Positions 5,920 through 23,788 are shown, numbered from the stretch's first letter. The stretch is 64,000 nucleotides of DNA from Bacteroidales bacterium UBA5072 (GCA_002415855.1 DIAS01000056.1:2274-66273), one strand, 5' to 3'. The notes: generated by a model from the letters alone, not told the origin. A program made the numbers and translations.

Positions 5920-5976
5920 AAATACCCATGCAATTCGACCCGGCGAATTTTCCATGCCAACCTGCATTGTGCTGAT

Positions 5977-7158: not shown

Positions 7159-7332
7159 ACAAAGCACTGTTTTAATGCCTGCAAAGGTTCTTTGAGACAG
7201 CCCCGGTCCAATAATGTATGGAATTGTCATCAACGAAGAAGCATCATGACATGACATAAATAAAATTGTGTGCTTTGGCAAATATTACCATTTACTTAAC
7301 TTATTTTTATTCCGGTAATAAGGATTTTAATT

Positions 7333-8346: not shown

Positions 8347-9674
8347 ATAATTCTTCAACATCCCACCGGTATGAGATCTCGTTCCCAGGAGGTAGAATTG
8401 TTTATCTTCCGCTGGAAGGCAGGATAATTGACATTACCGGAAAAGGAACAATTGTACTGCCTGACAAACGAAAGATTGGAATTATGATGGATCTCATGGA
8501 AGGCATGGATCCTGTGACAACAGCATTCAAGCCTGTTTGCCTGACAATATACACCAGTCACCAATGCAATCTTCAGTGTCAGTATTGTTATGTGCCGGAC
8601 AAAGAGTTGTATCCGAAAACAATTGTGGCTTCCGCCGCGGTTGATGCAGCTGCCAGGTTTGTGGCCAAAAATTGCCGGGAAAGGAAGCAGCCCTTTATCC
8701 TTGGTTTTCACGGCGGCAACGAACCCCTGATGAACCTGGGAAAAATCGAAGATCTCATTCATATTGCCGAATCTGTTGCGCAGAAAAATGATCTGGAGTT
8801 TTTGCCCTTCTGTACCACCAATGGCGTTATCCCTGAAAAAACGGCCAAATGGGCTGCCGGCATCTTTCACGGAATAACGCTTTCATGGGATGGCCCTCCG
8901 GAAATACACGACAAATACCGAAAGGATAAGTTGGGGAGAAATACCAGCCCCCAGGTCAGAAAAACGGTCGGTATCTTCAGTGATCTGATGGATCCCGGGA
9001 GACTGTCTGTACGCTGTACCATTTCCGGGGCTTCTGTGGAAAGGATGGAAGAATTGGCAGAGTATTTCAACAGGGCCGGCATAAAGCGTGTCGAGTTTTA
9101 TCCGGTTTTTAATGTCCCTGAAAAATCACTCCGGAAGGATTTAATACCTGATCCCGGGAAATTTGCATATAATTTTACTAAGGCCAGGGCTTATGGCGAT
9201 GCAAACGGGATCCAGGTCTGCTTCTCAGGTTCCAGGATCACAGATTATCACGGAAGGTATTGCATGATCCTGCAGGATAACCTGACAATAACTCCGGATG
9301 GTTTTCTGACAAACTGTTTCTTTCATACCCAGAATTATGAAAATGAATATGATCAGTATTTCTATGGCCAATTTCATCCTGAAAAGGGTCAGTTGGTAAT
9401 GCACCGGGAGAAACAGAACAGGATGAAGACAGGTTCCGTTTCCAGGCTCGTCGTGTGTTCGGATTGTTTTAACCAGTTCCACTGTTCGCAGGGATGTCCG
9501 GCAGTGTGTCCATTCGATGAAAACTTCCATGAATCAGACACTCCTGAATGCATCAAGGAAAAATGGCTGGGATTGGCCGCCATCTTGGGAAATGCAGGTT
9601 ATTTGAGAACATTTGACAGTGAAATATCGTTTGTTGAATTTTTTTCCGGTATAACAGTTCATCGATTGTCTTAA
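8343..9674 (+). CDS. radical SAM/SPASM peptide-maturase-like enzyme
   Basis: SHQCNLQCQYCYVP, GFHGGNEPLMN, and a C-terminal twitch/SPASM-like Cys cluster CMILQDNLTITPDGFLTNCF ... CSDCFNQFHCSQGCPAVCP. ATGA overlap with the upstream rSAM gene. Confidence 0.85.
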   Translation: MNNSSTSHRYEISFPGGRIVYLPLEGRIIDITGKGTIVLPDKRKIGIMMDLMEGMDPVTTAFKPVCLTIYTSHQCNLQCQYCYVPDKELYPKTIVASAAVDAAARFVAKNCRERKQPFILGFHGGNEPLMNLGKIEDLIHIAESVAQKNDLEFLPFCTTNGVIPEKTAKWAAGIFHGITLSWDGPPEIHDKYRKDKLGRNTSPQVRKTVGIFSDLMDPGRLSVRCTISGASVERMEELAEYFNRAGIKRVEFYPVFNVPEKSLRKDLIPDPGKFAYNFTKARAYGDANGIQVCFSGSRITDYHGRYCMILQDNLTITPDGFLTNCFFHTQNYENEYDQYFYGQFHPEKGQLVMHREKQNRMKTGSVSRLVVCSDCFNQFHCSQGCPAVCPFDENFHESDTPECIKEKWLGLAAILGNAGYLRTFDSEISFVEFFSGITVHRLS

Positions 9675-9954
9675 TGCAGCAAGGAAATTTTTCATGAGGA
9701 AGCGGTTAGCAGCAGAACCATACTCGGATCAGTACGCTTGATGTGCCACACAGCTTGTTGAATCAATTCGCCACTCCCGGTAGCATCCGTAAATCGCTTC
9801 AGTCAGAACTTGACAAAGTCCCTGATATTTATTACATTTGATCAAAGATGGAAAGAATGGCTATTATTCCGGTATTCATGGAAGAATCGCTGTTCATCAT
9901 TTTTTCCAACTGATGTCACTGACAGGCCAATTTATTTGATAAAGTCATGATCTT

Positions 9955-10401
9955 ATGAAAGAAACACATAACCGTCGTGTATTCCTGCAAATTGTGACAA
10001 AAGGTATCCTTTTAGGAACAATATCTTTTGGCTATTTTAAATTAGGAAAATCGTTTGAATTATCCCCCCCGGGTGATCGGATGAAGGCTCAGATTCCAAA
10101 AATTAATCCGGCCTTCAGGGTGAATGTTTTAAATGACGGTTCGGTCGAATTGTATACGCATAAGCCGGGTGGAGAAAAGGTTATTTATACGTTTGAAGGA
10201 TTTGAGGCAGAAACCCTCTTAACCATTCTTAAGCATGGAGATCCCAGTTTGTACTCACAGGAATTGGGCCTTAAATTTAATATCAGGGAAAATGATTTCA
10301 TTTCTATGGCTGAATCAACATTACGATCAATGGAGAACAAAGGATTTATCTATTATGGTGAAACAATGCTCGTAGAAATAAAGGAAGCAAGAAATGAGTA
10401 A
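9955..10401 (+). CDS. PqqD-like (RRE-like) protein with an N-terminal twin-arginine-like / TM segment
   Basis: Residues ~48-135 (PKINPAFRVNVLNDGSVELY...FEGFEAETLLTILKHGD...LRSMENKGFIY) follow the PqqD beta-strand plus winged-helix pattern. The N-terminus HNRRVFLQIVTKGILLGTISFGYF resembles a Tat signal or membrane anchor. 8-nt overlap with the downstream rSAM gene. Confidence 0.5.
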   Translation: MKETHNRRVFLQIVTKGILLGTISFGYFKLGKSFELSPPGDRMKAQIPKINPAFRVNVLNDGSVELYTHKPGGEKVIYTFEGFEAETLLTILKHGDPSLYSQELGLKFNIRENDFISMAESTLRSMENKGFIYYGETMLVEIKEARNE

Positions 10402-11722
10402 ATCATTCAGGATCTCTAGTGATCTTTTTACAATCCCTCATGAGGGTGATATTTCCATACTCTATGCCCCTAAGTTAGGCTATCTCATCAGAGCGAACAA
10501 GGATGTGATCAATCTGCTGGCTGACTTACCCAAGATCGACAGTGATCTCCTGAATGAAAAACAACGCAAGGTCCTTCAGCACCTGGAAGAACACGGTATA
10601 TTAAACGGTCCCTCCGAACCTGAAACAGGGAAAAACGGACAGGATGCATTTGCTCCTACCAGGGTCACCTTATTTCCCACCAACCAATGCAACCTGAGAT
10701 GCATTTATTGTTATGCTTCGGCAGGTGAACATCCTCCTGTGACAATGAATTGGATCTACGCCGTTTCAGCCATTGAAACGGTTATCAAAAATGCTTTAAA
10801 TACCGGTGATAAAAACATCAGTGTCGGTTTCCACGGGGGCGGCGAACCTTTGCTCCCCTGGAATTTTATAAAAAAGGTCACTGGCTATGTCCAGGAAGAA
10901 TGCAGAAAGAATAATCTGAATGTAAGCATTTATTCGGCTACCAACGGATTGCTGAGTGAGAAACAGCTTGAATGGATCACCGGGCATTTTTCTGATCTCA
11001 ACATCTCCTTTGACGGACTGCCGCATGTTCAGGACTATCACAGGCCACTGCCCAATGGCCGGGGTTCATTTAAATATGTTGACAGGACATTCAGATTTCT
11101 GGACAACAAAGGCTTTAACTATGGGATAAGAAGCACGTTCAGCGATTATAACATCGACCTGATGGAAGAGAGTTACGATTTCATTGTAGCGCATTACCAT
11201 CCAAGAACAATACATTTTGAACCTGTATTTCAATGCGGAAGATGCAAGACCAGCGGGCAATTCGATACAAACCTCGAAAAATTCGCCCGTTATTTCAAAA
11301 AAATAGATGATAAGCATGGGGACAAAAAGGTAAGATTTACCTATTCCGGATGCAGGGTTGAGACCCTGGCCGATTCCTTCTGCGGAGTTGCACGTGATGG
11401 TTTCTCTATCACCCCCGATGGTCATATAACAGCATGTTTCGAAACCACATCCCTGGAAGATCCAAAATCAAGGTATTTCTTTTATGGAAAAATTGATGAA
11501 AACAGGAACATCAACATCGATGAGGAAAAAAGGAATTACCTGCATCATTTAACGGTTGATAACATAAGGTACTGCAAGGATTGTTTTGCAAAATGGCATT
11601 GCGCAGGGGATTGTGCTGCCAAGCTCGGCCACGATGACCTTCATGGTGACCGGGGACATGACCGCTGCCTGCTCAACCGGCGAATGGTTAAGGATAAACT
11701 GGTCAGCATGCTCAGCATATAG
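10394..11722 (+). CDS. radical SAM/SPASM peptide-maturase-like enzyme
   Basis: FPTNQCNLRCIYCYASAG, GFHGGGEPLL, and a SPASM-like tail CGVARDGFSITPDGHITACF ... CKDCFAKWHCAGDCAAK. The N-terminal ~90 aa look RRE-like. Confidence 0.85.
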   Translation: MSKSFRISSDLFTIPHEGDISILYAPKLGYLIRANKDVINLLADLPKIDSDLLNEKQRKVLQHLEEHGILNGPSEPETGKNGQDAFAPTRVTLFPTNQCNLRCIYCYASAGEHPPVTMNWIYAVSAIETVIKNALNTGDKNISVGFHGGGEPLLPWNFIKKVTGYVQEECRKNNLNVSIYSATNGLLSEKQLEWITGHFSDLNISFDGLPHVQDYHRPLPNGRGSFKYVDRTFRFLDNKGFNYGIRSTFSDYNIDLMEESYDFIVAHYHPRTIHFEPVFQCGRCKTSGQFDTNLEKFARYFKKIDDKHGDKKVRFTYSGCRVETLADSFCGVARDGFSITPDGHITACFETTSLEDPKSRYFFYGKIDENRNINIDEEKRNYLHHLTVDNIRYCKDCFAKWHCAGDCAAKLGHDDLHGDRGHDRCLLNRRMVKDKLVSMLSI

Positions 11723-11754
11723 TGCATAGAATTGCTTAATATAACTACTTACTT

Positions 11755-12165
11755 ATGGCCCGGACCAAACCCCCAAACGACAGGTTAAAAGTAACCGACG
11801 GATTGCAAAATGATAATCCGGAGATAAGGGATACCATTAAGCTCAAAGTCCCCGATAAAGAGGTGCACATCATGCAGCCCGAGGAACAGCCTCCTGCAGG
11901 GGGTGGGGGCAGCAGCGGCGGGACCTGCTCCTGCCATTCGGTATGTACCTGTGTGCCGGTAAGCTCGTGTGCCTGTAACATGGTATGCACCTGCGATACC
12001 GTATGCAGCACGGATCTTTGTTCCTGTCATCCCTATTCAGGCTGCACACCGCACACCTGCACGTGTGTCCCGGTATGTTCGTGTGACTCCTATTGCACTA
12101 CTTGCTCCACCTGCTCTACCTGCTCTACCTGTACAACAGGTGGAAGTTACTGGTATCCCTGTTGA
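11755..12165 (+). CDS. Cys-rich putative precursor peptide (56-aa Cys-free leader plus 80-aa core with 22 Cys)
   Basis: Leader ...QPEEQPPAGGGGSSGG is followed by TCSCHSVCTCVPVSSCACNMVCTCDTVCSTDLCSCHPYSGCTPHTCTCVPVCSCDSYCTTCSTCSTCSTCTTGGSYWYPC. It lies 32 nt after an rSAM/SPASM gene. No signal peptide. Confidence 0.65.
   Translation: MARTKPPNDRLKVTDGLQNDNPEIRDTIKLKVPDKEVHIMQPEEQPPAGGGGSSGGTCSCHSVCTCVPVSSCACNMVCTCDTVCSTDLCSCHPYSGCTPHTCTCVPVCSCDSYCTTCSTCSTCSTCTTGGSYWYPC
12094..12132. repeat. 9-nt tandem repeat (tgcWCYacY) encoding C-T-T / C-S-T x3 / C
   Basis: Direct read: tgcactact tgctccacc tgctctacc tgctctacc tgt. Confidence 0.8.
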
Positions 12166-12204
12166 TTCTTGCTTTGATCCTTCAGTTGTAAAATCCAGAA
12201 AACC

Positions 12205-14739
12205 ATGATAACCAAAAGAATCCTGTTGCTTTCGGTGTTTATTTGCTTCCATTGGTGTCTGTTTGCGCAAACACCGGGAACTATGAAATGGGTGTTCACA
12301 ACCGGTAATGATGTTTCATCCTCCCCTGCTATTGGAAGTGATGGGACGATTTATGTAGGTTCAGAGGATAGCAAGTTGTATGCGATAAATCCGAATGGGA
12401 CAAAAAAATGGGAGTTTTTAACCGGGGGGAGTATATATATTTCTTCCCCTTCTGTTGGGATTGACGGAACAATCTATGTTGGTTCCTCTGACAATAAAGT
12501 TTATGCGATAAATCCTGATGGTACAAAAAAATGGGAGTTTACAACCGGGGGAATAATTTATTCTTCACCTGCCGTAGGATTCAATGGAACTGTATATATC
12601 GGTTCCAGTGATTTTAAACTGTATGCTATTAATCCCGATGGAACGGAAAAATGGGAGTTTTCTACAGGAAGTTGGGTGGATTCCTCCCCGGCAATTGGCA
12701 TTGACGGAACAGTTTATATAGGTTCCTGGGATAATACATTGTATGCTGTGAATCCTGATGGTACCAAGAAATGGGAATTCTCTGCCGATAATTGGATTGA
12801 TTCCTCCCCGGCAATAGGGAGTGACGGAACGATCTATGTCGGATCATTTGATAATAAAATATATGCAATAAATCCTGGCGGTACGAAAAAATGGGAGTTC
12901 TCAACTGCCGGAGCTAATAGTTCTTCACCGGCTGTTGGGATTGAAGGTACAATCTATGTTGGTTCCGGGGACGGCAAAATATATGCCATTAACCCTGACG
13001 GCACTAAAAAATGGGAGTTTCTAACCACCGGAGTTGTTAGCTCTTCGCCAGCAATAGGGAAAGACGGTACAATTTTCATTGGCTCATCACTTAATAGAAT
13101 GTACGCACTTAATCCTGATGGCACCAAAAAATGGGAGTTTTCAACCGGATTGGGTTCTTACTCCTCCCCTGCCATTGGAAGTGATGGCACAGTTTACATA
13201 GGTTGTGATGCCAGTTATCTTTATGCCGTTCGCTCGGATTGCGGAGGCCTGGCCGAAAGCTGCTGGCCTAAATTCAGAAAAAACATTGTGAACAATGGCA
13301 GTGCAGCCGCTGCTATTTATGCTGATACCAGGTTTTATGCAAAATTTACAAATGCTGCATCTCTTTCATTTGAAACCGATTTTTATAAAATACCGGGCAA
13401 ACCTGTTATCATTACCGGGATAAAATTGAGTAACAGCAATCTGTCAGCTGGATTATCGTTACCATATACACTCAATGCGGATAATACCGAATTCTTCATA
13501 CCACTCAACATGTCCAATCCACATACCGGCCTATGTGCGACGGCTATTGAACTTCAGTACCTTTATGACGGTGTTGCAATGACCAGTACGGACTACCTGG
13601 ATCTGGCCGTAATTGTTGATGACCACACGGAATTAAGCGTGGTCGGTAAAAGTGCCGTTGAGGCTTACCAGGCTTCCCTGGATGTTAATCCGATTGCAGT
13701 TGTGAATAACAAAGGCGTGATCTACAGGTTGCTGGATGAACCTGAAAAAGCCAAACCGCTCTTTAATACTGCCGTTAGTCTTGCCCTTGGGGAGTTTTAC
13801 GGATTTACCGGCATCAAAATGAATCAGGGGGTGGTCATGTCTGATCTTGGTTATAATGCGGACGCTGTGGGTTATTATGCCAACACCCTGGCGGATCTGA
13901 CAGGAGTGGAATCATCATCGGTTTTAGCGCCCCAGGTGTATTACAACCAGGCCTGGGAATATTATAATTCTGAAAGTTTTAATGACACAAAGACCAAAGC
14001 CCTCCAGACCATCAATCACCCGAAAGCAAACAACTTTCTCAAAGCGAAAGCCTATGTTTTATTAGGTTTATGCGATGCAGCCCTGGAAGATACCGCAACA
14101 GCCATTGATCACCTGCAGGATGCCGTTGATCTTGATCCTGCTTCCTGTATCGCAGAAATCGCAAAGGAGGACATTTGCATCCTGAGCACTGACCAGTATG
14201 AAAGAATATCCATTTGTGAAGGTGAAAGTTATGCGGGACTTACCGAATCCGGACAATACCTGCGCAAACTGGGATCAGGGACCGGCAGCACCAGTTATGT
14301 AATTACCATCCTGACGGTAAATCCGAAATATGACATTGCTATTGACACCACGATCTGTGAAGGGCAGAGCTATAACGGGTGGACCACAACCGGTGAGTAT
14401 GTGCAGAACCTGACTTCATCATGTGGTTGTGATAGCACAGTCACAACGTTGCTCACAGTGAAGGATTGTTCTTCTGGTATTGAACAAATGCAAAACATTA
14501 CATTTATCATTTATCCGAACCCAAGCAACGGTGATATTACAATAATGATCCCGGATAAATCTGCCGGTTCGCTTTTCATTGAGATCCAGGATATGACAGG
14601 TAACATTGTATTCAGCAACATGTTGCATTGTACAGAAAGCACTTGCAGGATTCATCTTGATCATATGCCGGCCGGAGTGTACTTTATTTCTGTTGAAAGC
14701 AGGGGAAAGAGGACTACCAAGAAAGTGATGATCTATTGA
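12205..14739 (+). CDS. secreted 8-bladed PQQ-like beta-propeller protein with TPR-like middle region and T9SS C-terminal sorting domain
   Basis: Signal peptide, then eight ~40-aa repeats (GTKKWEF.T.G.I.SSPAIG.DGTIYVGS.D.KLYAINPD). Two CEG.SY.G...G.Y...L....GCDS repeats follow. C-terminal IYPNPSNGDITI...GVYFISVES...KKVMIY is a Por/T9SS CTD. Confidence 0.8.
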   Translation: MITKRILLLSVFICFHWCLFAQTPGTMKWVFTTGNDVSSSPAIGSDGTIYVGSEDSKLYAINPNGTKKWEFLTGGSIYISSPSVGIDGTIYVGSSDNKVYAINPDGTKKWEFTTGGIIYSSPAVGFNGTVYIGSSDFKLYAINPDGTEKWEFSTGSWVDSSPAIGIDGTVYIGSWDNTLYAVNPDGTKKWEFSADNWIDSSPAIGSDGTIYVGSFDNKIYAINPGGTKKWEFSTAGANSSSPAVGIEGTIYVGSGDGKIYAINPDGTKKWEFLTTGVVSSSPAIGKDGTIFIGSSLNRMYALNPDGTKKWEFSTGLGSYSSPAIGSDGTVYIGCDASYLYAVRSDCGGLAESCWPKFRKNIVNNGSAAAAIYADTRFYAKFTNAASLSFETDFYKIPGKPVIITGIKLSNSNLSAGLSLPYTLNADNTEFFIPLNMSNPHTGLCATAIELQYLYDGVAMTSTDYLDLAVIVDDHTELSVVGKSAVEAYQASLDVNPIAVVNNKGVIYRLLDEPEKAKPLFNTAVSLALGEFYGFTGIKMNQGVVMSDLGYNADAVGYYANTLADLTGVESSSVLAPQVYYNQAWEYYNSESFNDTKTKALQTINHPKANNFLKAKAYVLLGLCDAALEDTATAIDHLQDAVDLDPASCIAEIAKEDICILSTDQYERISICEGESYAGLTESGQYLRKLGSGTGSTSYVITILTVNPKYDIAIDTTICEGQSYNGWTTTGEYVQNLTSSCGCDSTVTTLLTVKDCSSGIEQMQNITFIIYPNPSNGDITIMIPDKSAGSLFIEIQDMTGNIVFSNMLHCTESTCRIHLDHMPAGVYFISVESRGKRTTKKVMIY
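12283..13230. repeat. eight tandem ~120-nt coding repeats (propeller blades)
   Basis: The atgggagtt(t/c) (KWEF) landmark recurs at 12408, 12531, 12651, 12771, 12891, 13011 and 13131. Confidence 0.85.
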
Positions 14740-14776: not shown

Positions 14777-15862
14777 TCAGGCAAATAAAATCCCTGCCTT
14801 ATGCATAATCACTGAAATATTGATATGATTCGGGCATCTTTCTTCGCAACTTTCACAGGCAATGCAGCAATCAGCCGTTACATCAAGCATGTGGTAATCC
14901 CGCTGAAAGAAGTTTTTCCCCTTGACCATATTGAATTGATTCCATAGGCCGATTACTTTTGGAATATCAATACCCTGCGGACAGGGTAAACAATAATTGC
15001 AGCCTGTACAAAGAACAAGCCTTTCATCTCTTTCCTGCGCGACCATTTCATTAATGAACGCAGTATCAATAGGGGAAAATCTCTCCCCTCCTTCGATTTG
15101 GATGTTGCTGTCAATTTCTGATTTTGTCTGCATTCCCGAAAGGACACAATGAACATGTGGATTGGAATACGCAAATTTTAAAGCAATTGCCGGGATGGTT
15201 GCATGGAAATATTCTCTAAGCCTGGGAAAATCCACAAACGAATCTGTAAGTACTCCCCCGGCCAGCGGATTCATAACGATCACTCCCAATCCTCTGTTGT
15301 ATGCATATTGAATGGCATCTTCATAGGTACGATTGAGCATATTGTATGAAAGTATAACTGCATCAAAAGGTCCCGCATCAATAAGCTTTATAATGTTTCC
15401 GGGAGTGTCATGACTGCTGAATCCCAGGTACCTGATCAGACCATCTCTTCTGGCCCGGTGAACCTGTTCGATGATCCCTTCTGCCAGAAAATGCTTCTCC
15501 CATGACTTGTATTCCAAATAATGGATGAAATAAAAATCCAGTGCTTCCCTATTATAAAGATGCAGTGTATTTTTCAGTTGCGCTGTCCAGTTTCCAGGAT
15601 CAGACAGATGGGTCGTGTTTTTGCCGCTTAAAATGACTGCTGGTTTCTGGTCATTTATTGCCAGACCAAAGACTTTTTCACATTGAAAATGACAATAGAA
15701 GGTCCCGATATCGAAAAAGTTGATTCCAGTCTTTAAGGCATAATGCATTAAAGATATGGCTTCTGTAAAATCAATTGATTGCGGTGCAATGGGCAGCCTC
15801 ATCGCCCCAAACCCAAGTGCAGAAATATAAAAGTCAGTATTTCCAAATTTTTTATAATCCAT
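14777..15862 (-). CDS. aldo/keto reductase with C-terminal 4Fe-4S ferredoxin-type domain
   Basis: AKR N-terminus (ISALGFGAMRLP). C-terminal CTGCNYCLPCPQGIDIP ... CIACESCEERCP. The start overlaps the stop of the 1121-aa gene by 11 nt. Confidence 0.8.
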   Translation of the reverse strand: MDYKKFGNTDFYISALGFGAMRLPIAPQSIDFTEAISLMHYALKTGINFFDIGTFYCHFQCEKVFGLAINDQKPAVILSGKNTTHLSDPGNWTAQLKNTLHLYNREALDFYFIHYLEYKSWEKHFLAEGIIEQVHRARRDGLIRYLGFSSHDTPGNIIKLIDAGPFDAVILSYNMLNRTYEDAIQYAYNRGLGVIVMNPLAGGVLTDSFVDFPRLREYFHATIPAIALKFAYSNPHVHCVLSGMQTKSEIDSNIQIEGGERFSPIDTAFINEMVAQERDERLVLCTGCNYCLPCPQGIDIPKVIGLWNQFNMVKGKNFFQRDYHMLDVTADCCIACESCEERCPNHINISVIMHKAGILFA

Positions 15863-18800
15863 ACTGCATCAATTCTTCCACCATTTTTGAAATATGCCAT
15901 GATCCGGAACCGGTAAGCCGGAATTCACTATCCGATTTCTCAATAAGGTCATAACTCAACCACTTTTCAAAGAGTGTCTCCATTTTAAAGTAGGTGACAT
16001 CACTCTCCGGAACGATACCACCGATCAGTCGTGCTTTAATCAAACGTCGTTCCAGTTCCCTGGGCTTAAGATATCCACCACCCTGCAGTGGAGGAGAAAT
16101 CATTTGTTTATGAGACAGATACTCTTCAATCCACTGATGTACATAGTAGTAGTCATCAAAAATACCATCTGCCGTCGGACCCAGGGCCAGCAAATCTTCA
16201 TTCCGGCATACATGATTGTAATACAGGTTTCTATCCTCTTTCTTGGCATAATGTACAAAATGATTCTTCTTATACCCCGATCGGATGAGATATTGGTCTG
16301 CCAGTTGAAAAAGAAAATAATCATAAACCGGTGATCTTTTAAAACCTCCAATATTAGCAAAGAAAGCCTTGTTCTTATCGGTGATGTTCAATTGATACAG
16401 GGAGAAACCGTGTATTCCGGATTTGCATAACTCAGCCAACGTATGTAACAATGATCCCGCATGCTGAAAAGGAAGGCCGTAGAGTACATCAACGGAAACT
16501 ACAAAACCCATTTTCATGGCGTCCTCAAGTTTTAATAATACCTCCCGGGCCGTTTCTTTTCGGCCCAAAATCTTCCTGATTGGATCATCCAGGGTTTGAA
16601 CCCCAACCAGTAACCTGCGAAATCCTGCTTCAGACAATATCCTAAGCTGTTCCCCGGAAAGCAAGCTGGTTGTGGACTCCAGCGCTATTTCAGTGGTGTC
16701 GGTGATTTTCAATCCCTTTCTCAAACGATCGGTTAAAGCATGGAGTTTTTCCGGCGGCAAATAGCCAGGAGTCCCTCCGCCAAAATGAATGCTTGTTACC
16801 GGCCTTTCGGTGATATTGGAATTTTGCGTCCACAATGCTATCTCTGAAAGCAGAAGCCTCGTAAATTCGGATATTTTTTCAGCGTTTCTTTCAGGAACGG
16901 CCATGGAATAACAATCACAAAAGTTACACTTCCTGTCGCAAAAAGGAACATGCACATATAACGAATAAGGACTGGAAACTGGTTTTGAGATCTTCTCCTG
17001 AAGGACCTTCCAGCACTTATCCGGGCCATGGAGTAATCCGTTTTCCAGCCATTCAGGTGAAGGCATGGTTTTCAATCTGTTGTGGTAATCTCCGGGGACC
17101 TTTTCCCATTGCTGCTGTATCCTGTCAAAATCCGTTTCAGGCGGGATCTGATGTTCAATCCGTTGAATAACCCTTTCGAACTTATCCGTATTCTTCTTCT
17201 TTTTTCTCAGAATCTGCTGACTTTTCTTGCCGGAAGCTGCTGTCATTTTTTTCTCCCAATAGACCCGGCAATAATTACAGGAAAAGCAATTATGATCACA
17301 ATACAAAGTGTGCTTAAAGAACGCCTGGTCAATATCAATAGACTCGTTTACGGAAGCAGGTCCTCCGCCGATCTCATTTGGGCTCAGGTCTTTTCCCTTA
17401 AAGTAATGCGTAAGGACTTTCAGGTAATTATCCGGGTTTCTCAGTGTACTCCTGCCTGCGAGCTTCAGGTCATCATATAATCCATCATACAGGTCAAGGA
17501 ATTGTGGCAATATCCATGCACCGGTCAGACGAAGCCAGGGATGCCGGAAAAGCAGCTCCCGGCAAAGTGACTCAGGATGTCTAATACCTGGTGATCCCAT
17601 TTCATAAAAATGCTGTATCCGGTGAACGCAACCAGGTAGACAGGCCTCATTAACGAGCAGACGAATTTCACCCTGGAAGCATTTTCTGATTTGGTTCAAT
17701 ACTGCTATATTTCTCAGGATCTTTCCGGAAGGAACGACAGTGTCAAACAATCCTTCCAGCATGATTAACTGGGAAGATGATGCAATATCCATCAAGGTGG
17801 AAGCCGTAAGGGATATTTCAGGAAATTCCTTTCTGATCAATCGTGCCAGATCAACATTTGACAAGGTAATTTCCCGGATTTCAGTTTTTTTGATGATCTT
17901 TTCAATTTGCTGAATAATTGAAGGTCCGATTTTTTCAACCTTATCAGGTAAAACGATAGGATTGATGATCAGGTTCTTTTTGCACTTTGTTTCTTCCAGG
18001 AAAGATGCCAGATGTATCATCGGTTGAACCGGACGTCCTGAAGGTATTGTAGTGTCTGGCAAAGGAAAATAAATACCACGAATGCTTTCCCCATGAACGG
18101 AATTGAGTTTTTCCCAGAATTCTGGCGGTTGGTCAATATAGGGAATGGTGTATTTTGAGGCGACTGCATTTTTCTTGCTGCTGTCATTGACCGTCCCTCC
18201 CCCTGCTTGAATAATTTCCAAGCCTGATTTGAGATATGCCGTTGACGGAACCGGCTGCCCGTTCTCTATTCTCTTAAACCGGTTCAAAACCTGTGCCCTG
18301 CACCCTCCATAACATTCACCCTTGAGGAAGAGATCACATTTCGTGCAGTGGGGGAAAATCCCGGTCGACCTGAAAGGTTCCATTTTTTTAAGAAATACCT
18401 TTCCTATCTCGCCGGTATCCTGATAATCACTCAGCTTTAACTTTTCAGTGGCATGAAAAAGGGGAAAACACGAAACAACATTTCCATCCGGCAGTATATC
18501 AGGGAGAGGATTACACCTTTTTCCAATGTCTTTATAATGTTCTTCAATCATTTCTTTAAGTTCCTCAGGGAACATACATGGGACAAAACCACAATCGAAA
18601 CTTATCCGAACGTTCTTGCCGGACGCATCCTGAAGAAACCGAGCCAGATGGTTACCTGTAGCCTGATAGAATTTAGGATGAAGATATTGATTGGCAGGTG
18701 GTACAACAGGATGCGCAAGCCCTAGCCTGATATCAGGAGCAAGGTTGTACCTTTCGATCATTGGCAAAACATAGTCCAGATCCTGCCCGGGACGATAGAT

Positions 18801-19217
18801 ATTAATGCCCAGTCCCGCCTTTCTTCCGAGAAATGCAAGTGCCCTTCTCTGAGCCTTTAGATCAGCATGTTCATCGGAAGGATCAATACAATTAATACAA
18901 AATTTTATTCTTTCATCAGGGAATTGATCAATCTCAGCAAGTATATTTTCCTTCATCAATCCATTGGAGAATATGCTGATATTGAATCCCTCATCTAATC
19001 CAAGTCTGATAAGGGAAAGGAATTCAGGATGCAAAGAAGGCTCCCCACCCAGCAGGCGAAGCTCGCTGACACCGGAATTCTTTAAAAATCCCAGAATATG
19101 AAAGAAATTTGAAAGGCTCATGCTGCTTGTTTCAAATGCTCCCGATTTTCTGAATCCTGTAGCGAAGCAATAGGAACAGTTACGATTGCAGGAATCAGTT
19201 ATGATAAGATTTGCCAT
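15852..19217 (-). CDS. three-domain fusion: radical SAM/SPASM-like + peptidase-U32-like + HemN-like radical SAM
   Basis: aa 1-320: ITDSCNRNCSYCFA, LLGGEPSL, CTKCDLFLKGECYGGCRAQ. aa ~355-655: U32-like (EITLSNVDLARLIRKEFPEISLTASTLMDI, LLVNEACLPGCVHR, LKLAGRSTLRNPDNYLKVLTHYFKG, CDHNCFSCNYC). aa ~745-1121: HemN/HemW-like (YVHVPFCDRKCNFCDCY, IHFGGGTP). Confidence 0.8.
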   Translation of the reverse strand: MANLIITDSCNRNCSYCFATGFRKSGAFETSSMSLSNFFHILGFLKNSGVSELRLLGGEPSLHPEFLSLIRLGLDEGFNISIFSNGLMKENILAEIDQFPDERIKFCINCIDPSDEHADLKAQRRALAFLGRKAGLGINIYRPGQDLDYVLPMIERYNLAPDIRLGLAHPVVPPANQYLHPKFYQATGNHLARFLQDASGKNVRISFDCGFVPCMFPEELKEMIEEHYKDIGKRCNPLPDILPDGNVVSCFPLFHATEKLKLSDYQDTGEIGKVFLKKMEPFRSTGIFPHCTKCDLFLKGECYGGCRAQVLNRFKRIENGQPVPSTAYLKSGLEIIQAGGGTVNDSSKKNAVASKYTIPYIDQPPEFWEKLNSVHGESIRGIYFPLPDTTIPSGRPVQPMIHLASFLEETKCKKNLIINPIVLPDKVEKIGPSIIQQIEKIIKKTEIREITLSNVDLARLIRKEFPEISLTASTLMDIASSSQLIMLEGLFDTVVPSGKILRNIAVLNQIRKCFQGEIRLLVNEACLPGCVHRIQHFYEMGSPGIRHPESLCRELLFRHPWLRLTGAWILPQFLDLYDGLYDDLKLAGRSTLRNPDNYLKVLTHYFKGKDLSPNEIGGGPASVNESIDIDQAFFKHTLYCDHNCFSCNYCRVYWEKKMTAASGKKSQQILRKKKKNTDKFERVIQRIEHQIPPETDFDRIQQQWEKVPGDYHNRLKTMPSPEWLENGLLHGPDKCWKVLQEKISKPVSSPYSLYVHVPFCDRKCNFCDCYSMAVPERNAEKISEFTRLLLSEIALWTQNSNITERPVTSIHFGGGTPGYLPPEKLHALTDRLRKGLKITDTTEIALESTTSLLSGEQLRILSEAGFRRLLVGVQTLDDPIRKILGRKETAREVLLKLEDAMKMGFVVSVDVLYGLPFQHAGSLLHTLAELCKSGIHGFSLYQLNITDKNKAFFANIGGFKRSPVYDYFLFQLADQYLIRSGYKKNHFVHYAKKEDRNLYYNHVCRNEDLLALGPTADGIFDDYYYVHQWIEEYLSHKQMISPPLQGGGYLKPRELERRLIKARLIGGIVPESDVTYFKMETLFEKWLSYDLIEKSDSEFRLTGSGSWHISKMVEELMQYGL

Positions 19218-19218
19218 A

Positions 19219-19488
19219 CTATGAGCTTAATAAACTGCTGACGATCCAACTGTCAATATTCTTCAACATCCAGAGCACAGTTTCCGGCTTATCCTTTTTT
19301 AAAATCGGGGCCAGCATATCGGACATTGCGGTAAATGAATAACCCTGCTGGATCATATTCCACAAAGCTGCTTCCGGATATGGAATAACTACCATTTTGT
19401 TCAGATCTCCCGAATAAACCTTGATACAGTTAACTTCAGTCGCATACTCAATCTGCCCGTTCAGGCTATATCTGGTCTTAGGATTCAT
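19219..19488 (-). CDS. PqqD-like (RRE-like) small protein
   Basis: 89 aa. KMVVIPYPEAALWNMIQQGYSFTAMSDMLAPIL...WIVSSLL fits the PqqD pattern. 11-nt overlap with the upstream rSAM gene and a 1-nt gap to the downstream fusion gene. Confidence 0.5.
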   Translation of the reverse strand: MNPKTRYSLNGQIEYATEVNCIKVYSGDLNKMVVIPYPEAALWNMIQQGYSFTAMSDMLAPILKKDKPETVLWMLKNIDSWIVSSLLSS

Positions 19489-20896
19489 GGTTGCTCCAGT
19501 CCGTTAGTTTATCACTGCGCTGCATCGAGAACTTTCTGAGCTGCTGTTCGTCTCCCAAAAAGACTTCGAGAATACCTGGCTGATCGATCTTTCTCATCAT
19601 ATCAATTATTCCCAGAATACGGGTTTGTCTGCAATAATTATCATATACAACAGGTGATCCCGGATAAGTAACATCTACATGACACCCCCCGGCACATATC
19701 CATTTGCAGAAGCATGAAGTGCAACGCGGCTTTTTCTTCACCAGATCGCGTAATCCGGCTATTTTCTCCTGTGAGATGTGCATTCCCCCTGCTTTCATTT
19801 TTCCAACGGACAAATCGAGTCCCCTTTCCTCCCATCTATTCGGTAATAGATAGCAGCTATTGATCTCCCCCTCCGGAGTGACAATAAGTGTATCCTTACC
19901 AACAGGGCAGGAGGAAAATTGAGGTTTTTCCGAAGCAAAGGATGAGTTAAGAACAGTAACGTTATACTTATCAGCTATCTGAAGAGATCGGAGAAATTGT
20001 TCTGCAAACATATATGGATCCGGTTCCAACAGGCCTGCATCTCGCGAGCCTTTATTGGATTTCAGATTCTCAAAATTGATGATCGAAGGCCTAAATGTTC
20101 TGCAAAACCAGTCGGTAATTTCAGGCATTCTGCGAACGCTGACATTACTGATGCATGCTCGCAGGTAGAGTTCAGTGTTGGACTCACTGACAGCCCTGGC
20201 AAATCTCACTGCAGGCTCAAAACTGTCCTGCTTGTTGCGCATTGGCCTTTGTCGGTTCTGAATATCTTCAGGACCATCCAGGGACAGAACCACAGCATTT
20301 ATGTGATCAGTAACAAACCGTGTGATTTTATCAGAAACCAGTCCATTTGTAGATACCTCGAAATAAGGAAGCAGGTCATACTGATCTGCGATCATTCTGG
20401 CATAATGTACAGCAACACTTACAACATCGGGTGCATACAACGGCTCCCCTCCAAAGAAATGAACTTCGAGCTTCTTCTTGTTCAATTGTTTCATTCGGCT
20501 GGCCATCCAATCGATTGCTGCAATTGCCATTTTATAACTCATTTTTTTATTTCTTCTGCCGACATGCTCAAAGTCACAATAATGGCAGGCGCCGTTGCAA
20601 GCTCGGGTCGGGATTAATCCGAGAAAATACGGATCAGGATTGCCTGCGGGTTCACCAGGTAATTCCCTGGTTGATTCCTGTAATGCATTTAAGATAGTAT
20701 CAATTGCTTTTTTCTTAGCCTGGTTTTCCTGCTTCTTTATCAAATAATCATACAGATAGCTTACAGCAGTTTTATCTGTTAATGCAGTTATGGCCTTCAG
20801 TGGTGAATAAATGATAAAATATTCATTTATGGGCAAAACATAGAGTTGTTCAACATCATTAAAATTTTTTGCTTCAATATGAACCAGATTACTCAT
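19478..20896 (-). CDS. radical SAM/SPASM peptide-maturase-like enzyme
   Basis: IPTRACNGACHYCDF, HFFGGEPLY, and a SPASM-like tail FSSCPVGKDTLIVTPEGEINSCY ... CTSCFCKWICAGGCHV ... YCRQTR. The N-terminal ~90 aa look RRE-like. Confidence 0.85.
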   Translation of the reverse strand: MSNLVHIEAKNFNDVEQLYVLPINEYFIIYSPLKAITALTDKTAVSYLYDYLIKKQENQAKKKAIDTILNALQESTRELPGEPAGNPDPYFLGLIPTRACNGACHYCDFEHVGRRNKKMSYKMAIAAIDWMASRMKQLNKKKLEVHFFGGEPLYAPDVVSVAVHYARMIADQYDLLPYFEVSTNGLVSDKITRFVTDHINAVVLSLDGPEDIQNRQRPMRNKQDSFEPAVRFARAVSESNTELYLRACISNVSVRRMPEITDWFCRTFRPSIINFENLKSNKGSRDAGLLEPDPYMFAEQFLRSLQIADKYNVTVLNSSFASEKPQFSSCPVGKDTLIVTPEGEINSCYLLPNRWEERGLDLSVGKMKAGGMHISQEKIAGLRDLVKKKPRCTSCFCKWICAGGCHVDVTYPGSPVVYDNYCRQTRILGIIDMMRKIDQPGILEVFLGDEQQLRKFSMQRSDKLTDWSNHES

Positions 20897-21025
20897 GTAA
20901 AAATGGATAAAGAAGATTCTTCTGTTGTAGGATCAATTTATAAAAATTCCGGCATCTTTTTAGATCTTTCTATTAATAATCAAGAAACCGACGATTTTAA
21001 ACCTATTTCCCGAAATCCGTCCCGT

Positions 21026-22384
21026 CTAAAACACCATCGTGAAAACTGTTTCTTTCTCAGGTATTGAATACACCGATATCGTACCATTATGCAAATGCAT
21101 AATTTGCCTGGATAAACTCAGTCCTATTCCTGATCCTTTTTCCTTTGTGGTAAAAAAAGGAATGAAGATCTGGTCGATCAACTCAGGCGGAATTCCTTTC
21201 CCATTATCCGACACCTGAATGATCACTTTCCCGTTTTCGCTGTGGAATACCTTCAATTTAATGACCTTGTTTATTTTTTCAGTTGCTGAAAGTGACTCCA
21301 TGGAATTCTTGACCAGATTGATCAGTATTTGTTGGATCTGCGATTTATCAGCCGTAAGCTCAATATCTTTCCTGGTAATTTCAGAAATACAATTGATACG
21401 ATTGGTCTGCAATTCTTCACCAAGCAGTATCTCACAGTTAGTCAAGAGTTCCCGTATAGCAAAAGTCGACATGACCGGTTGAGGTAATGCATTAAATGCC
21501 TTGTAATGCTCAACAAAGCTTTTCAGACCCTCACTTCGCTCATGGATAATGGACAGCCCGGAAATTGCTTTTTCACGCATGCGATCCCATTGCTGGCTTG
21601 ATATAGCACTGTCACCTGTATCTTTCCCCGAAAAATAACTGCTTAGTGTAGCAGTAGTGGAAATAATCGGTGCAAGAGAATTCATGATCTCGTGGTTCAG
21701 TATCCGTATCAGTTTTTGCCAGGATTCGAGTTCTTTCCTGTCAAGTTCATGTCTGATATCCTGAAAGGTAATTATCTTCAGTTCCCTGTCAACGAGTTTC
21801 AGGACTGTGCTGTTTAAGGACAAAGAGACAGTATCATTGCCAGTATTTACCTGAATAAGCCTTTTCTCGGAAGGTCTGATAGCATGAAGGATATCACCTA
21901 AGCCTTTCTGATGATTATTAAGCTTATCAATCTTGTGTATTGTTTTTATTCCCAGTAAATTTTTGGCAGCCTTGTTGATGATGTCCACCTTACCATCCGG
22001 CCCAAATGAAATAAGTCCGGTTTGGATGCTTTCAACTATCGTTTTAAAGTATTGATCTTGTATGGCATATTTAATTCTGATGGATTTAATCAGCGTATTT
22101 ACATCATCCATGGATTTATAAATATTACGGAACTTTCTTTTACTCCTGTTAAAAGATAAACCTGAATCCTCGTTCTTTATGGAATCAAAAAATCCGGCAA
22201 GATCACGGTTGGTTTTGTTCACATAATAAATGAAAAGAATTGCCTGGAGAACAATCAACAAGCTTAAATTAACCAAGGAGAAATAGTTGCCTGAACCATA
22301 CCAGGTAAAAGCAAATATCATGCAGTTGGCAGTCAGGAGCAACACACGGACAACTACATTCACATAAAAGTGAAGATTAACCAT
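21026..22384 (-). CDS. sensor histidine kinase (2 TM, PAS, HisKA, HATPase)
   Basis: H-box LNHEIMNSLAPI, N/G boxes NLVKNSMES ... DNGKGIP ... GSGIGLSLSRQI. Confidence 0.85.
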   Translation of the reverse strand: MVNLHFYVNVVVRVLLLTANCMIFAFTWYGSGNYFSLVNLSLLIVLQAILFIYYVNKTNRDLAGFFDSIKNEDSGLSFNRSKRKFRNIYKSMDDVNTLIKSIRIKYAIQDQYFKTIVESIQTGLISFGPDGKVDIINKAAKNLLGIKTIHKIDKLNNHQKGLGDILHAIRPSEKRLIQVNTGNDTVSLSLNSTVLKLVDRELKIITFQDIRHELDRKELESWQKLIRILNHEIMNSLAPIISTTATLSSYFSGKDTGDSAISSQQWDRMREKAISGLSIIHERSEGLKSFVEHYKAFNALPQPVMSTFAIRELLTNCEILLGEELQTNRINCISEITRKDIELTADKSQIQQILINLVKNSMESLSATEKINKVIKLKVFHSENGKVIIQVSDNGKGIPPELIDQIFIPFFTTKEKGSGIGLSLSRQIMHLHNGTISVYSIPEKETVFTMVF

Positions 22385-22411
22385 GGTTCATGGATTAAGG
22401 TGGATAAAAAA

Positions 22412-23788
22412 TCAGGTAGTATATTTTTTTAACTTATTGTACAGCGTTTGCCTGCCAATCTTAAGTTCCTTTGCCGTCCTCGACAGGTTGCCTTTATTTC
22501 GTTCCAGTATTGATAGTATCGTATGCCGTTCGGCCTCCTCGAGTGTATTAAATGCTTTGTGTCCGATGACAGGATTAAGATTCCGTTTATCCACAAAAAA
22601 GTCCGCAGCCTGAAGTATATTGGAACTGCTTAAAATAACAGCCTTTTCAACAGCATGCTGTAATTCACGGATGTTCCCCGGCCAGGGATATTCCTTAAGC
22701 GCCTGCAATGCATACTGATGGATCTGAATAAGGGGTTTGGAATACTTTGTCCTGTAATAATCCAAATAAAACCGGATGAGCACCGGAATGTCCTCAATTC
22801 TGGCACGCAAGGGAGGGATAGCCAGTTGTATGGTGTTGATTCTGTAAAAAAGGTCTTCCCGAAAGGCATTGTTCTGGATCATTTTTTCAAGATCCTTGTT
22901 AGTGGCACAAACAAATCTCACATCAACTTGTGTACTTTTATTGGAACCCATTGGGCATATCTCCTTGTTCTGCATTACTGAAAGCAGTTTCGCTTGCATG
23001 GATAGGGTGAGATTTCCGATTTCGTCAAGAAAGAGGGTGCCCCCGGAAGCTGATTCAATTTTACCGATCCGGTCTTCCCTGGCATCTGTAAATGCGCCTT
23101 TGACATGCCCGAATAATTCACTCTCAAAAAGGTTCTCATTCAGTGATCCCAGATCAACCCGCATGAAAATCTCATCCCTCCTTTCTGACTGCTTATGAAT
23201 TTCCCTGGCGATTAGCTCTTTACCCGTTCCATTTTCACCGGTAATGAGCACACAGGCTTCGCTTAACGCAATCTTGGGAATGGCATTATATATATTATCC
23301 ATACTTTTTGAAGGGCCTCTTATAAGGTTAATACCATTTCCCAATGATTCTGCAAGATTTTTCTGGTTTTGTTTAAGCTTTTTTACCTCAATTTTCGACT
23401 TTCTGAGATTGTATGCTGATTGAATCGTTGCAAGCAATTTATAGTTGTCCCATGGTTTTACAACGAAATCTGTTGCGCCCTCTTTTATTGCCCTCACCGC
23501 CATTTCAATGTCCCCATATGCAGTTATATGTACCACAACAGCATGAGGATCGATCCTGAGTATTTCCTTAAGCCAGTAAAAACCTTCATTTCCGGTCATT
23601 TTACCCGCCGAAAAATTCATGTCGAGCAAAACAACATCAAAGTTCTCCTGCAAAATAAGCTGAGGAATACGGTTTGGATTGCTGACCGTTATGATCACCC
23701 CAAAATAATCTTCCAGAAAGAGTTTCAGCGAATCAAGAACACTCTTGTTGTCGTCGACAATCAGAATTTTGCCTTGCCTGAATTCCAT
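22412..23788 (-). CDS. sigma-54-dependent response regulator (REC + AAA+ + Fis-type HTH)
   Basis: ILIVDDN ... LLDMNF (REC), GENGTGKE Walker A, ESELFGH (GAFTGA-region), and a C-terminal HTH RTAKELKIGRQTLYNKLKKY. Confidence 0.9.
   Translation of the reverse strand: MEFRQGKILIVDDNKSVLDSLKLFLEDYFGVIITVSNPNRIPQLILQENFDVVLLDMNFSAGKMTGNEGFYWLKEILRIDPHAVVVHITAYGDIEMAVRAIKEGATDFVVKPWDNYKLLATIQSAYNLRKSKIEVKKLKQNQKNLAESLGNGINLIRGPSKSMDNIYNAIPKIALSEACVLITGENGTGKELIAREIHKQSERRDEIFMRVDLGSLNENLFESELFGHVKGAFTDAREDRIGKIESASGGTLFLDEIGNLTLSMQAKLLSVMQNKEICPMGSNKSTQVDVRFVCATNKDLEKMIQNNAFREDLFYRINTIQLAIPPLRARIEDIPVLIRFYLDYYRTKYSKPLIQIHQYALQALKEYPWPGNIRELQHAVEKAVILSSSNILQAADFFVDKRNLNPVIGHKAFNTLEEAERHTILSILERNKGNLSRTAKELKIGRQTLYNKLKKYTT

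Follow-up and report, generated by a model that had tools for sequence, protein, structure and literature searches.

Introduction

The U32 family is large and mostly uncharacterised; its members are thought to hydroxylate aromatic rings without O2, and neither the polyprenyl phenols nor the ribosomal and transfer RNA that are known as substrates are easy to work with. In UbiU/UbiV the oxygen donor is prephenate and the proposed mechanism requires a two-electron oxidation of the ring, the electron acceptor being unidentified, and the clusters of U32 proteins have been proposed to form an electron-transfer chain (PMC10990095). Four cysteines arranged as CX6CX15CX3/4C bind a [4Fe-4S] cluster in these proteins (PMC6747719). 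Here we describe a 64,000-nucleotide stretch of DNA from Bacteroidales bacterium UBA5072 (GCA_002415855.1, DIAS01000056.1:2274-66273; "the window" below, with positions counted from its first letter), in which a single gene for an 1121-amino-acid (aa) protein joins a predicted U32-like barrel to two radical S-adenosylmethionine (rSAM) modules, close to a gene for a candidate peptide substrate. At the level of whole systems, its closest analogies are the maturation of pyrroloquinoline quinone (PQQ), of mycofactocin and of the quinohemoprotein amine dehydrogenase gamma subunit. PqqA and MftA carry conserved aromatic residues at or near the C-terminus and QhpC and PapA have Cys-rich repeats. In the anaerobic sulfatase-maturating enzyme (anSME), hydrogen-atom abstraction is followed by removal of an electron through auxiliary clusters.

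We conclude that the 1121-aa enzyme belongs to an undescribed and widespread rSAM-based system that appears to mature peptides and proteins, with a new C-terminal tag and new types of module. By analogy with characterised enzymes, it would be a posttranslational maturase that is brought by a PqqD-like partner to tagged peptides or proteins and acts on their aromatic C-terminal tag, a reading to which we give a probability of roughly 0.6. NCBIfam (June 2026) holds no model for the precursor or for the U32-like module, and we found no description of an rSAM-U32 partnership, of peptide maturation by a U32 protein or of a tag of the HYWYPN type in full-text searches of the literature.

A single gene encodes three separable modules

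The gene and its parts are as follows.

15852-19217 (stop codon included), minus strand: three-module enzyme M1-M2-M3 (ORF list and translation)
18273-19217, minus strand: M1, aa 1-315, radical SAM with a SPASM-like auxiliary-cluster region (Pfam, invariant columns, Foldseek)
18162-18272, minus strand: disordered linker, aa 316-352 (predicted local distance difference test, pLDDT, <50; length and sequence vary in the alignment)
17253-18161, minus strand: M2, aa 353-655, predicted divergent U32-type TIM barrel (AlphaFold2, Foldseek, Pfam, phmmer, hhalign)
17118-17252, minus strand: long helical connector, aa 656-700 (model helix 648-690)
15855-17117, minus strand: M3, aa 701-1121, HemN-like radical SAM (NCBIfam, PDB phmmer, Foldseek)

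The initial annotation, made from the sequence alone, had placed an open reading frame (ORF) for 1121 aa at 15852-19217; we recovered it at exactly those coordinates and located in its translation all of the motifs that had been quoted. That annotation lacked the strand, a further module (MX) and the substrate, all of which are dealt with below. The ORF is uninterrupted, with its ATG at 19217 and its stop at 15852-15854 on the minus strand, and its N-terminus, MANLIIT..CNRNCSYCF, agrees with the consensus start of the family. Continuous orthologues of 1087-1121 aa, with 50-66% identity, are present in independent assemblies of metagenomes and metagenome-assembled genomes (MAGs), namely P0002-P0006, L001 and L006, the last from a Rikenellaceae MAG. 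The protein contains 29 cysteines; alignments of 34 and 119 homologues show little or no variation at those within motifs, which are therefore conserved features rather than chance occurrences. The proposal of three separable modules also agrees with the full-length AlphaFold2 model (mean pLDDT 84.8; predicted template modelling score, pTM, 0.49), in which three confidently folded modules are joined by the linker and the helix. We conclude that the ORF is a single real gene for a multi-cluster iron-sulfur enzyme with three independently folding modules.

M1 contains CNRNCSYC (CX3CX2C) at aa 10-17, GGEP at aa 57-60 and CTKCDLFLKGECYGGC at aa 291-306. Its invariant cysteines are 209, 214, 235, 250, 291, 294, 302 and 306, the last four of which make up the auxiliary-cluster motif CX2CX7CX3C (C291-x2-C294-x7-C302-x3-C306). 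M1 matched the Pfam models Radical_SAM and Fer4_12 and, at ~23 bits, showed weak matches to NirJ and AhbD. Foldseek matched M1 to anSME (4k37, at 7e-8), SuiB, ChlB and SkfB over ~350 aligned columns, with template modelling (TM) scores of 0.52-0.59 against anSME and SuiB. The Pfam SPASM model (PF13186) had no match in the 1121-aa protein and matched 1 of 34 homologues weakly (E 5e-4). The reading of M1 as rSAM/SPASM-like was thus upheld by the auxiliary cysteine motif and the anSME/SuiB-like fold, though without a PF13186 match.

M3 contains LYVHVPFCDRKCNFCDC at aa 753-769, which includes FCDRKCNFCDC (and, within it, CDRKCNFC), and GGGTP at aa 813-817. Against the PDB, phmmer linked M3 to HemN (1olt, 2.9e-25) and to the class C methyltransferase NocN (2.2e-18), and Foldseek aligned it with 1olt over 435 columns (E 1.4e-22, TM 0.73). 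Its best NCBIfam match was ChuW/HutW, and M3 fell below every NCBIfam equivalog cutoff: 204 versus 400 bits for HutW/ChuW, 129.7 versus 205.4 for HemW, 123.2 versus 325 for HemN and 99 versus 321 for HemZ. M3 accordingly appears, from its motifs and predicted fold, to be a member of the HemN family, as had been proposed: CX3CX2CXC and GGGTP are both present, and 1olt was matched in sequence as well as in structure. CX3CX2C is found in M1 and in M3, and PF04055 scored 125.1 bits in the 1121-aa protein, in two stretches, against a cutoff of 29.5; on sequence grounds, both modules are assigned to the radical SAM superfamily.

The middle module resembles U32 proteins

M2 carries LLVNEACLPGCVHR at aa 520-533, KLAGRS at aa 585-590 and, C-terminally, CDHNCFSCNYC (CX3CX2CX2C) at aa 640-650. 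Cysteines 526, 530 and 552 are invariant (CX3CX21C), as are many non-cysteine residues. Modelled alone with AlphaFold2, M2 gave an alternating beta/alpha barrel (pLDDT 94.4, pTM 0.92), for which the top Foldseek match in the PDB was the U32 protein Mk0906 (5d88; E 1.3e-9, TM 0.69 normalised to the target); the next matches were generic TIM barrels at 2.6e-4 or worse, five orders of magnitude behind 5d88. A phmmer search with M2 against 1.84 billion representative proteins found ~50 close family members and, in a second tier, stand-alone proteins 310-350 aa long (E 1e-20 to 1e-11, 25-32% identity, near full length). Among nine second-tier proteins tested, seven exceeded the Pfam U32 cutoff, with up to 52 bits. 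Weak matches to the Pfam model Peptidase_U32 (PF01136) were also detected in 11 of 34 homologues of the enzyme (E <= 0.01, best 7e-5).

Stand-alone U32-like proteins of 310-350 aa (P0166-P0203) have in common with M2 the element VNExCLxxCPxR and a C-terminal CxxNCxxCxxC, the latter absent from E. coli U32 proteins; they appear to be a U32 subfamily, so far uncharacterised, that lies between M2 and the canonical U32 proteins. In an alignment of M2, this bridge family and the E. coli U32 proteins, a strand-plus-cysteine element is shared (VNEAC in M2, GALC in U32). More specifically, C552 of M2 aligns with C193 of UbiU, C526 lies within one position of UbiU C169, and K[IL]xGR is aligned with U32 KIEGR; the fourth canonical U32 cysteine is absent from M2, and the C-terminal CX3CX2CX2C is common to M2 and the bridge family. 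By hhalign, the M2 family aligned with E. coli UbiU, UbiV, RlhA and TrhP at E 0.0012 and a probability of 19% in the correct register, which is weak support for the register and not proof. When the family alignment was run as a profile against PDB sequences, full-length rows dominated and all matches were to rSAM in the N-terminal part, so that the search was uninformative for M2.

Because 5d88 was the top structural match, the second tier links M2 to U32 proteins and the aligned elements are shared, model and alignment together identify M2 as a probable divergent member of the U32 superfamily. An account of M2 as a mere linker, or as an extension of an rSAM barrel, was rejected: M2 also exists as a stand-alone gene of ~310 aa.

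The modules recur in permuted fusions across phyla

We scanned one genome per GTDB species and obtained 78 loci; counts below are over 81 loci, almost all from MAGs. The loci span at least 10 phyla, mostly of uncultured anaerobes, with Bacteroidales, Acidobacteriota, Desulfobacterota, Chloroflexota, Planctomycetota, Actinomycetota, Verrucomicrobiota, Lentisphaerota, KSB1, Armatimonadota and others represented. A protein search yielded a handful of three-module proteins, as against more than 100 clusters of ~650-aa proteins with M1 and M2 only. A Ca. Vecturithrix locus (L002) has one gene for a 694-aa M1+M2 protein and, after it, one for 895 aa; the C-terminal half of the latter protein is 43% identical to aa 660-1121 of the window enzyme (M3), while the N-terminal half constitutes one more rSAM/SPASM module, here named MX. 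The same split into M1+M2 and MX+M3 genes occurs in L005, where the two are 6 kb apart (41% identity). Four-module fusions of 1523-1577 aa also exist, and alignment with P0008-P0010 showed that MX is inserted in them at the connector, aa 656-700. BLAST of the ORFs against the modules gave the following map.

M1+M2: 38 ORFs
MX+M3: 29 ORFs
M1+M2+M3: 3 ORFs, Bacteroidales-type only
M1+M2+MX+M3: 2 ORFs
M2+M3 without M1: 1 ORF (L034, 2867-4810, 647 aa, at a contig end)
M1+M3 without M2: 1 ORF (L057, 10001-12280, 759 aa)
All four modules separate: many Chloroflexota and Actinomycetota loci (e.g., L081, L064, L070 and L076)

The gene had been proposed to be a Rosetta-stone fusion, to be checked by looking for its modules as separate genes. 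Such genes were found in Chloroflexota and Actinomycetota, and elsewhere the modules are fused in other ways, so that fusion partners are interchangeable. Since the same modules recur either fused in permutations or co-located (all four in 50 of 81 loci), they almost certainly act together, and we infer that in the fusions they work as one complex on one substrate. The permutations also provide a ready-made map of partner modules, pairing M1 with M2 and MX with M3.

The enzyme is encoded with a PqqD-like protein and further rSAM proteins

In a compact four-gene operon on the minus strand (r472, an 89-aa protein, the enzyme and a reductase), the enzyme gene comes third, and further rSAM genes of the system lie on the plus strand.

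19478-20896, minus strand: r472, 472-aa rSAM/SPASM protein like peptide maturases, first operon gene (NCBIfam)
19219-19488, minus strand: 89-aa PqqD-like protein (membership of a ~97-aa family)
14777-15862, minus strand: aldo/keto reductase, 361 aa, with a C-terminal 2x[4Fe-4S] ferredoxin-like domain (Pfam Aldo_ket_red, Fer4_9/Fer4_17)
8343-9674, plus strand: 443-aa rSAM/SPASM protein, likely a separate MX orthologue (BLAST, module map)
10394-11722, plus strand: r442, 442-aa PapB-like rSAM/SPASM maturase (NCBIfam PapB, 141 bits, below cutoff)

The r472 protein scored 119.6 bits with the NCBIfam PapB-like model and 112.5 bits with the SCIFF maturase model, both below cutoffs, and an r472-type gene lies upstream of M1 in nearly all loci. 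In the window, r472 overlaps the 89-aa gene by 11 nucleotides (nt), a single base separates the latter from the start codon of the enzyme, and the reductase gene overlaps the 3' end of the enzyme gene by 11 nt. The ~97-aa family that includes the 89-aa protein is present in 57 loci, and the family member from L005 reaches the Pfam PqqD cutoff (23.4 bits), which suggests that the 89-aa protein is a peptide-recognition partner. The reductase is restricted to Bacteroidales-type clusters, and its position is kept in the P0002 contig, L001 and L006. Compared with the MX half of the 895-aa protein from L002, the 443-aa protein shows 32% identity (E 4e-55); in most other phyla, MX is fused to the HemN-like module.

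A C-terminal tag is linked to the enzyme in both directions

Two predicted substrates are encoded in the window.

11755-12165, plus strand: 136-aa tagged candidate precursor (translation; orthologues in L001, L006 and L074)
46832-48232, plus strand: 466-aa WD40 protein, second predicted substrate (tag scan, Pfam WD40, translation)

The 136-aa ORF, which no Pfam or NCBIfam model matches, consists of a leader, GGGGSSGG, 22 cysteines in CxC repeats (TCSCHSVCTCVPV...CSTCSTCSTC) and a terminal SYWYPC-stop. The WD40 gene lies 27 kb away from the enzyme cluster, and its product has an N-terminal Tat-like (twin-arginine translocation) signal region and ends in ...LPCGAPIPAGATCICDC...VCVCDTIVVG...MTYWYPN-stop. 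Together with ORFs from the other loci, these ends define a tag with the consensus [H]-Y-W-[Y/H]-P-[N/C/T/S]-stop, usually after CxC repeats. Among 34 non-redundant tails, counted relative to the tryptophan (W, 34/34), position -2 is H in 30/34, position -1 is Y in 34/34, position +1 is Y in 27, H in 6 and F in 1, position +2 is P in 34/34, and position +3, directly before the stop, is N in 22, C in 8, T in 3 and S in 1. The Y, W and P of the tag are thus invariant, and exactly one residue follows the P.

A six-frame scan of the 81 loci (1.5 Mb) revealed 82 tagged ORF ends in 54 loci, and none in reversed-sequence controls. Tagged ORFs vary in length between 51 aa and more than 500 aa, and the largest conserved group, to which the WD40 protein of the window belongs, comprises WD40 beta-propellers from 49 loci (median 466 aa), which carry a leader (...DDRLK...PEVY...) at the N-terminus together with a Tat-type RRxFLG signal. 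Of the shorter Cys-rich precursors, the two tested reach the NCBIfam TAT-signal cutoff; these shorter proteins have a cysteine just after the hydrophobic stretch of the signal, in a lipobox-like arrangement, and in many precursors the repeats start with CxCH. Three to four tandem tagged paralogues, each ending in HYW[YH]P[NT], occur in L005 (14231-18257), L012 (11622-14998), L018 and L020, those of L005 and L012 being of WD40 type; with several such paralogues in a locus, one enzyme set therefore appears to serve multiple substrates.

Reciprocally, a metagenome collection was scanned for the DNA pattern encoding HYWYPN plus a stop codon, which returned at least 120 stretches. Among the matches listed, at least 69 were genuine tagged loci, in which CxC repeats precede the tag; rSAM genes of the system were present in 15/15 tagged versus 0/17 untagged loci of at least 8 kb, and in 18/21 tagged versus 0/16 untagged loci of 3-8 kb; and the 15 tagged loci of at least 8 kb included 10 with M1, 10 with M3 and 4 with M2. 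Enzyme and tag are thus linked in both directions. With both a PqqD-like partner family and a co-encoded precursor that has a conserved region, the loci qualify as putative systems of the type that makes ribosomally synthesized and post-translationally modified peptides (RiPPs).

In L055 and L056, the tagged precursors are nearly Cys-free and no r442-like gene is found, yet r472, M1, M2, MX and M3 are all present, so that the core enzymes track the tag and not the CxC repeats. Elsewhere, an r442-like gene is the enzyme gene nearest to the tagged ORF in 17 of 34 cases. Taken together, the gene content of L055 and L056 and this proximity suggest that the CxC repeats are the target of r442 and that the tag is dealt with by the core enzymes, the 1121-aa enzyme among them.

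Proposed mechanism and points that weigh against it

The suggestion in the initial annotation that one polypeptide may couple crosslinking, anaerobic hydroxylation and C-methylation of a single substrate is reasonable as a hypothesis. In the mechanism that we propose, the PqqD-like protein and the leader would recruit the substrate to a complex formed by r472, M1-M2 and MX-M3. M1 would remove a hydrogen atom and then, via its auxiliary clusters, a second electron, giving an oxidised aromatic intermediate (a cation or a crosslink). M2 could then complete an O2-independent hydroxylation of the Tyr, Trp or His ring, as in UbiU/UbiV, RlhA and TrhP, with prephenate as a possible oxygen donor. Oxidation of Tyr, Trp or His is tentatively assigned to M1, and the supply of oxygen to M2, because the pairing or fusion of M1 with M2 is near-universal and an rSAM/SPASM oxidation fits what the U32 reaction needs. 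For M3, two options may be considered: (i) methyl or methylene transfer to an sp2 carbon, of class C, as in NosN, NocN and ChuW; or (ii) an oxidative decarboxylation, as by HemN, at the one residue beyond the proline. For the latter, the free C-terminal carboxylate would be a plausible target, given that the proline is strictly followed by exactly one residue. The PapB-like paralogues of r442 type probably make thioether links in the CxC repeats, and the Bacteroidales-specific reductase may supply electrons or reduce the product.

A more specific outcome, which we regard as doubtful, is an aromatic group hydroxylated without O2 and crosslinked from H-Y-W-Y-P-N, i.e., a C-terminal, protein-derived quinone-like cofactor or warhead on Tat-exported WD40 and Cys-rich proteins, in which M1 would perform the two-electron oxidation and M2 would introduce oxygen from prephenate. 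If true, this would be the first U32 enzyme to act on a peptide and the first natural rSAM-U32 partnership, as well as an anaerobic equivalent of the reactions that require O2 in the formation of PQQ, tryptophan tryptophylquinone (TTQ) or cysteine tryptophylquinone (CTQ).

Several observations weigh against a tag-directed maturase with these activities. All catalytic roles are assigned by analogy, and direct in vitro hydroxylase activity has been shown for no U32 protein (PMC10990095). M2 scored below the Pfam gathering cutoff for Peptidase_U32 (17.1 versus 22.4 bits, E 0.0035, aa 441-489 only), and in it CX3CX21C and a new C-terminal CX3CX2CX2C replace the canonical CX6CX15CX3/4C. With M3 below its cutoffs, methylation, decarboxylation and ChuW-like chemistry cannot be distinguished. 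The PqqD-like copy in the window has no significant Pfam match. At the level of loci, 27 of the 81 have no tagged ORF within the fetched flanks, and some in which M1, M2 and MX are present lack M3, many of these on incomplete contigs.

Alternative explanations

An alternative that we judge unlikely shares the maturation of a tagged peptide with the reading above, but M2 may then be a redox, scaffold or docking domain and not a hydroxylase; as an iron-sulfur barrel for electron transfer or docking, it would leave a product with only crosslinks and methyl or decarboxylation changes. The score under the Pfam U32 cutoff, the canonical four-cysteine motif only partly kept, the additional C-terminal motif, the proposed role of U32 clusters in electron transfer and the lack of in vitro hydroxylation (PMC10990095) would all be accommodated, whereas M2 retains U32 hallmarks (the equivalent of UbiU C193, K[IL]xGR and the barrel), and its high conservation, with many invariant non-cysteine residues, is as expected of an active site. 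The U32 assignment itself, first made from motif resemblance, held up: fold and transitive sequence link speak for it, while the Pfam cutoff was not reached and the four-cysteine motif is incomplete.

Alternatively, the tag might be a C-terminal sorting or anchoring signal, with the rSAM set attaching or processing an anchor such as a lipid or a cell-surface link. That it stands at the very end of exported proteins whose sizes differ widely (51 to more than 500 aa) would suit such a role, as would the Tat-type signals on many tagged proteins, some with a lipobox-like cysteine, and the type IX secretion cargo among the genes of Bacteroidales clusters. We nevertheless consider this quite improbable: the conserved families of the loci include nothing that resembles a sortase, exosortase or rhombosortase, the tag lacks a transmembrane segment and, to our knowledge, five to six rSAM domains plus a U32 barrel occur in no sorting system.

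Very improbable, in our view, is a substrate of another kind, i.e., a tetrapyrrole or other small-molecule cofactor (as for HemN, ChuW, NirJ and AhbD), with the peptide genes unrelated or receiving the finished cofactor. This would explain why the curated matches of M3 are led by ChuW/HutW, followed by HemW and HemN, and why M1 weakly matches NirJ and AhbD (~23 bits); CxCH at the first repeat of many precursors could provide cofactor attachment sites, and the reductase gene directly after the enzyme may be likened to ChuY, which follows ChuW. However, the HemN-family scores are all far under the equivalog cutoffs, and the best structural matches of M1 are peptide-modifying SPASM enzymes. Likewise, a PqqD-like gene of a family found in 57 loci lies directly upstream, the linkage of enzyme and tag holds in both directions, and no tetrapyrrole biosynthesis genes were seen in the clusters examined.

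Finally, that the long ORF is an assembly or frameshift artefact fusing two or three genes can be dismissed as hardly credible: a related MAG locus broken into many fragments (L074) shows that assemblies of this gene can be poor, but its errors split genes rather than merge them, seven independent orthologues of 1087-1121 aa are continuous, the connector between modules is a conserved helix, and other phyla carry other fusion permutations.

Other genes of the cluster and the window

The remaining genes of the cluster, all on the plus strand, are as follows.

7333-8346, plus strand: r337, 337-aa radical SAM protein, accessory member (Pfam Radical_SAM; family in 21 loci)
9955-10401, plus strand: 148-aa protein with N-terminal NRRVFLQ and a hydrophobic segment (translation)
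12205-14739, plus strand: 844-aa PQQ-repeat beta-propeller with TPR and a type IX secretion C-terminal domain (Pfam)

The 148-aa gene is translationally coupled to r442 and has orthologues in L001 and the P0002 contig; its product matched no Pfam or NCBIfam model and showed no significant similarity by BLAST to a ~156-aa RRxFF family of 52 other loci. The 844-aa propeller is conserved in the P0002 contig, L001, L006 and L074; elsewhere, propellers (WD40, NHL) bear the tag themselves, so that a propeller theme runs throughout the system. The gene order of the cluster is kept in the P0002 contig, L001 and L006. In L074 (Bacteroidales MAG CAVOWZ010000017.1), the orthologous cluster at 5950-14430 is shredded into short ORFs with apparent frameshifts, which most likely reflects assembly consensus errors and is not to be read as pseudogenisation without checking the reads.

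Further genes were noted on both sides of the cluster.

221-2694, plus strand: accessory genes for citrate lyase, encoding CitX fused to CitG and the citrate lyase ligase CitC
3397-5409, minus strand: 670-aa FAD-dependent oxidoreductase, weakly like geranylgeranyl reductase, QhpG and halogenase-type flavoproteins
21026-23788 and 26378-29099, minus strand: two paralogous pairs of a histidine kinase and a sigma-54-dependent NtrC-type regulator
24005-26362, 29195-29974 and 30234-37536, plus strand: four MacB/FtsX-type ATP-binding cassette (ABC) permeases (785-811 aa) and an ABC ATPase
37601-40837, minus strand: 1078-aa hybrid sensor kinase with Reg_prop and Y_Y_Y domains, as is typical of Bacteroidota, after which come DUF5916/CBM9 and DUF2807 proteins

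The interval 20897-21025, upstream of the enzyme operon, showed no sigma-54 promoter consensus, and with matches across the window not above chance (48 found versus 56 expected), such a promoter was rejected. It is possible that the array of ABC permeases is linked to export of modified products.

Comparison with known systems

Judged by sequence, each module belongs to a known superfamily and none falls within a curated equivalog definition. The arrangement places a U32-like barrel in fusion with a probable radical-generating partner and offers a short encoded tag as candidate substrate, possibly the first tractable one for the oxygen-free U32 hydroxylases, whose chemistry would become testable with peptides. 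The tag also marks out a wide and unexplored class of exported, putatively modified WD40 and Cys-rich proteins, in a system with up to six rSAM domains.

M2 has the TIM-barrel fold in common with the U32 proteins UbiU/UbiV (ubiquinone), RlhA (23S rRNA ho5C2501) and TrhP (tRNA ho5U34), and its best structural match, 5d88, is given as the only solved U32 structure. The conserved cysteines of M2 are consistent with Fe-S binding, as in that family, and the H-Y-W-Y side chains of the tag are aromatic or heteroaromatic rings like the substrates known for U32 proteins. In contrast to those proteins, M2 is fused to or encoded beside radical SAM enzymes, and its predicted substrate is a peptide tag rather than a quinone precursor or RNA.

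With HemN, HemW, ChuW/HutW and the class C rSAM methyltransferases NosN, NocN and TbtI, M3 shares CX3CX2CXC after LYVHVPFC, plus GGGTP. It differs from the HemN family in scoring roughly half of the curated cutoffs, in a conserved N-terminal extension (MPxPxW), in being always fused to or beside SPASM-type rSAM modules, and in its predicted substrate, a peptide C-terminus.

Finally, M1 resembles PqqE/PqqD (PQQ), MftC/MftB (mycofactocin), QhpD, PapB, anSME and SuiB in having an rSAM core with a CX2CX5-7CX3C region, and a small partner gene of PqqD type is common to this system and the rSAM/SPASM maturation systems. A genetically encoded substrate with C-terminal aromatics (compare PqqA and MftA) and Cys-rich repeats (compare QhpC and PapA) completes the likeness. 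Unlike systems of the PqqE/MftC/QhpD type, however, the one described here has five to six rSAM domains instead of one, adds U32-like and HemN-like modules, and has predicted substrates that are often full-size exported WD40 proteins with Tat-type signals.

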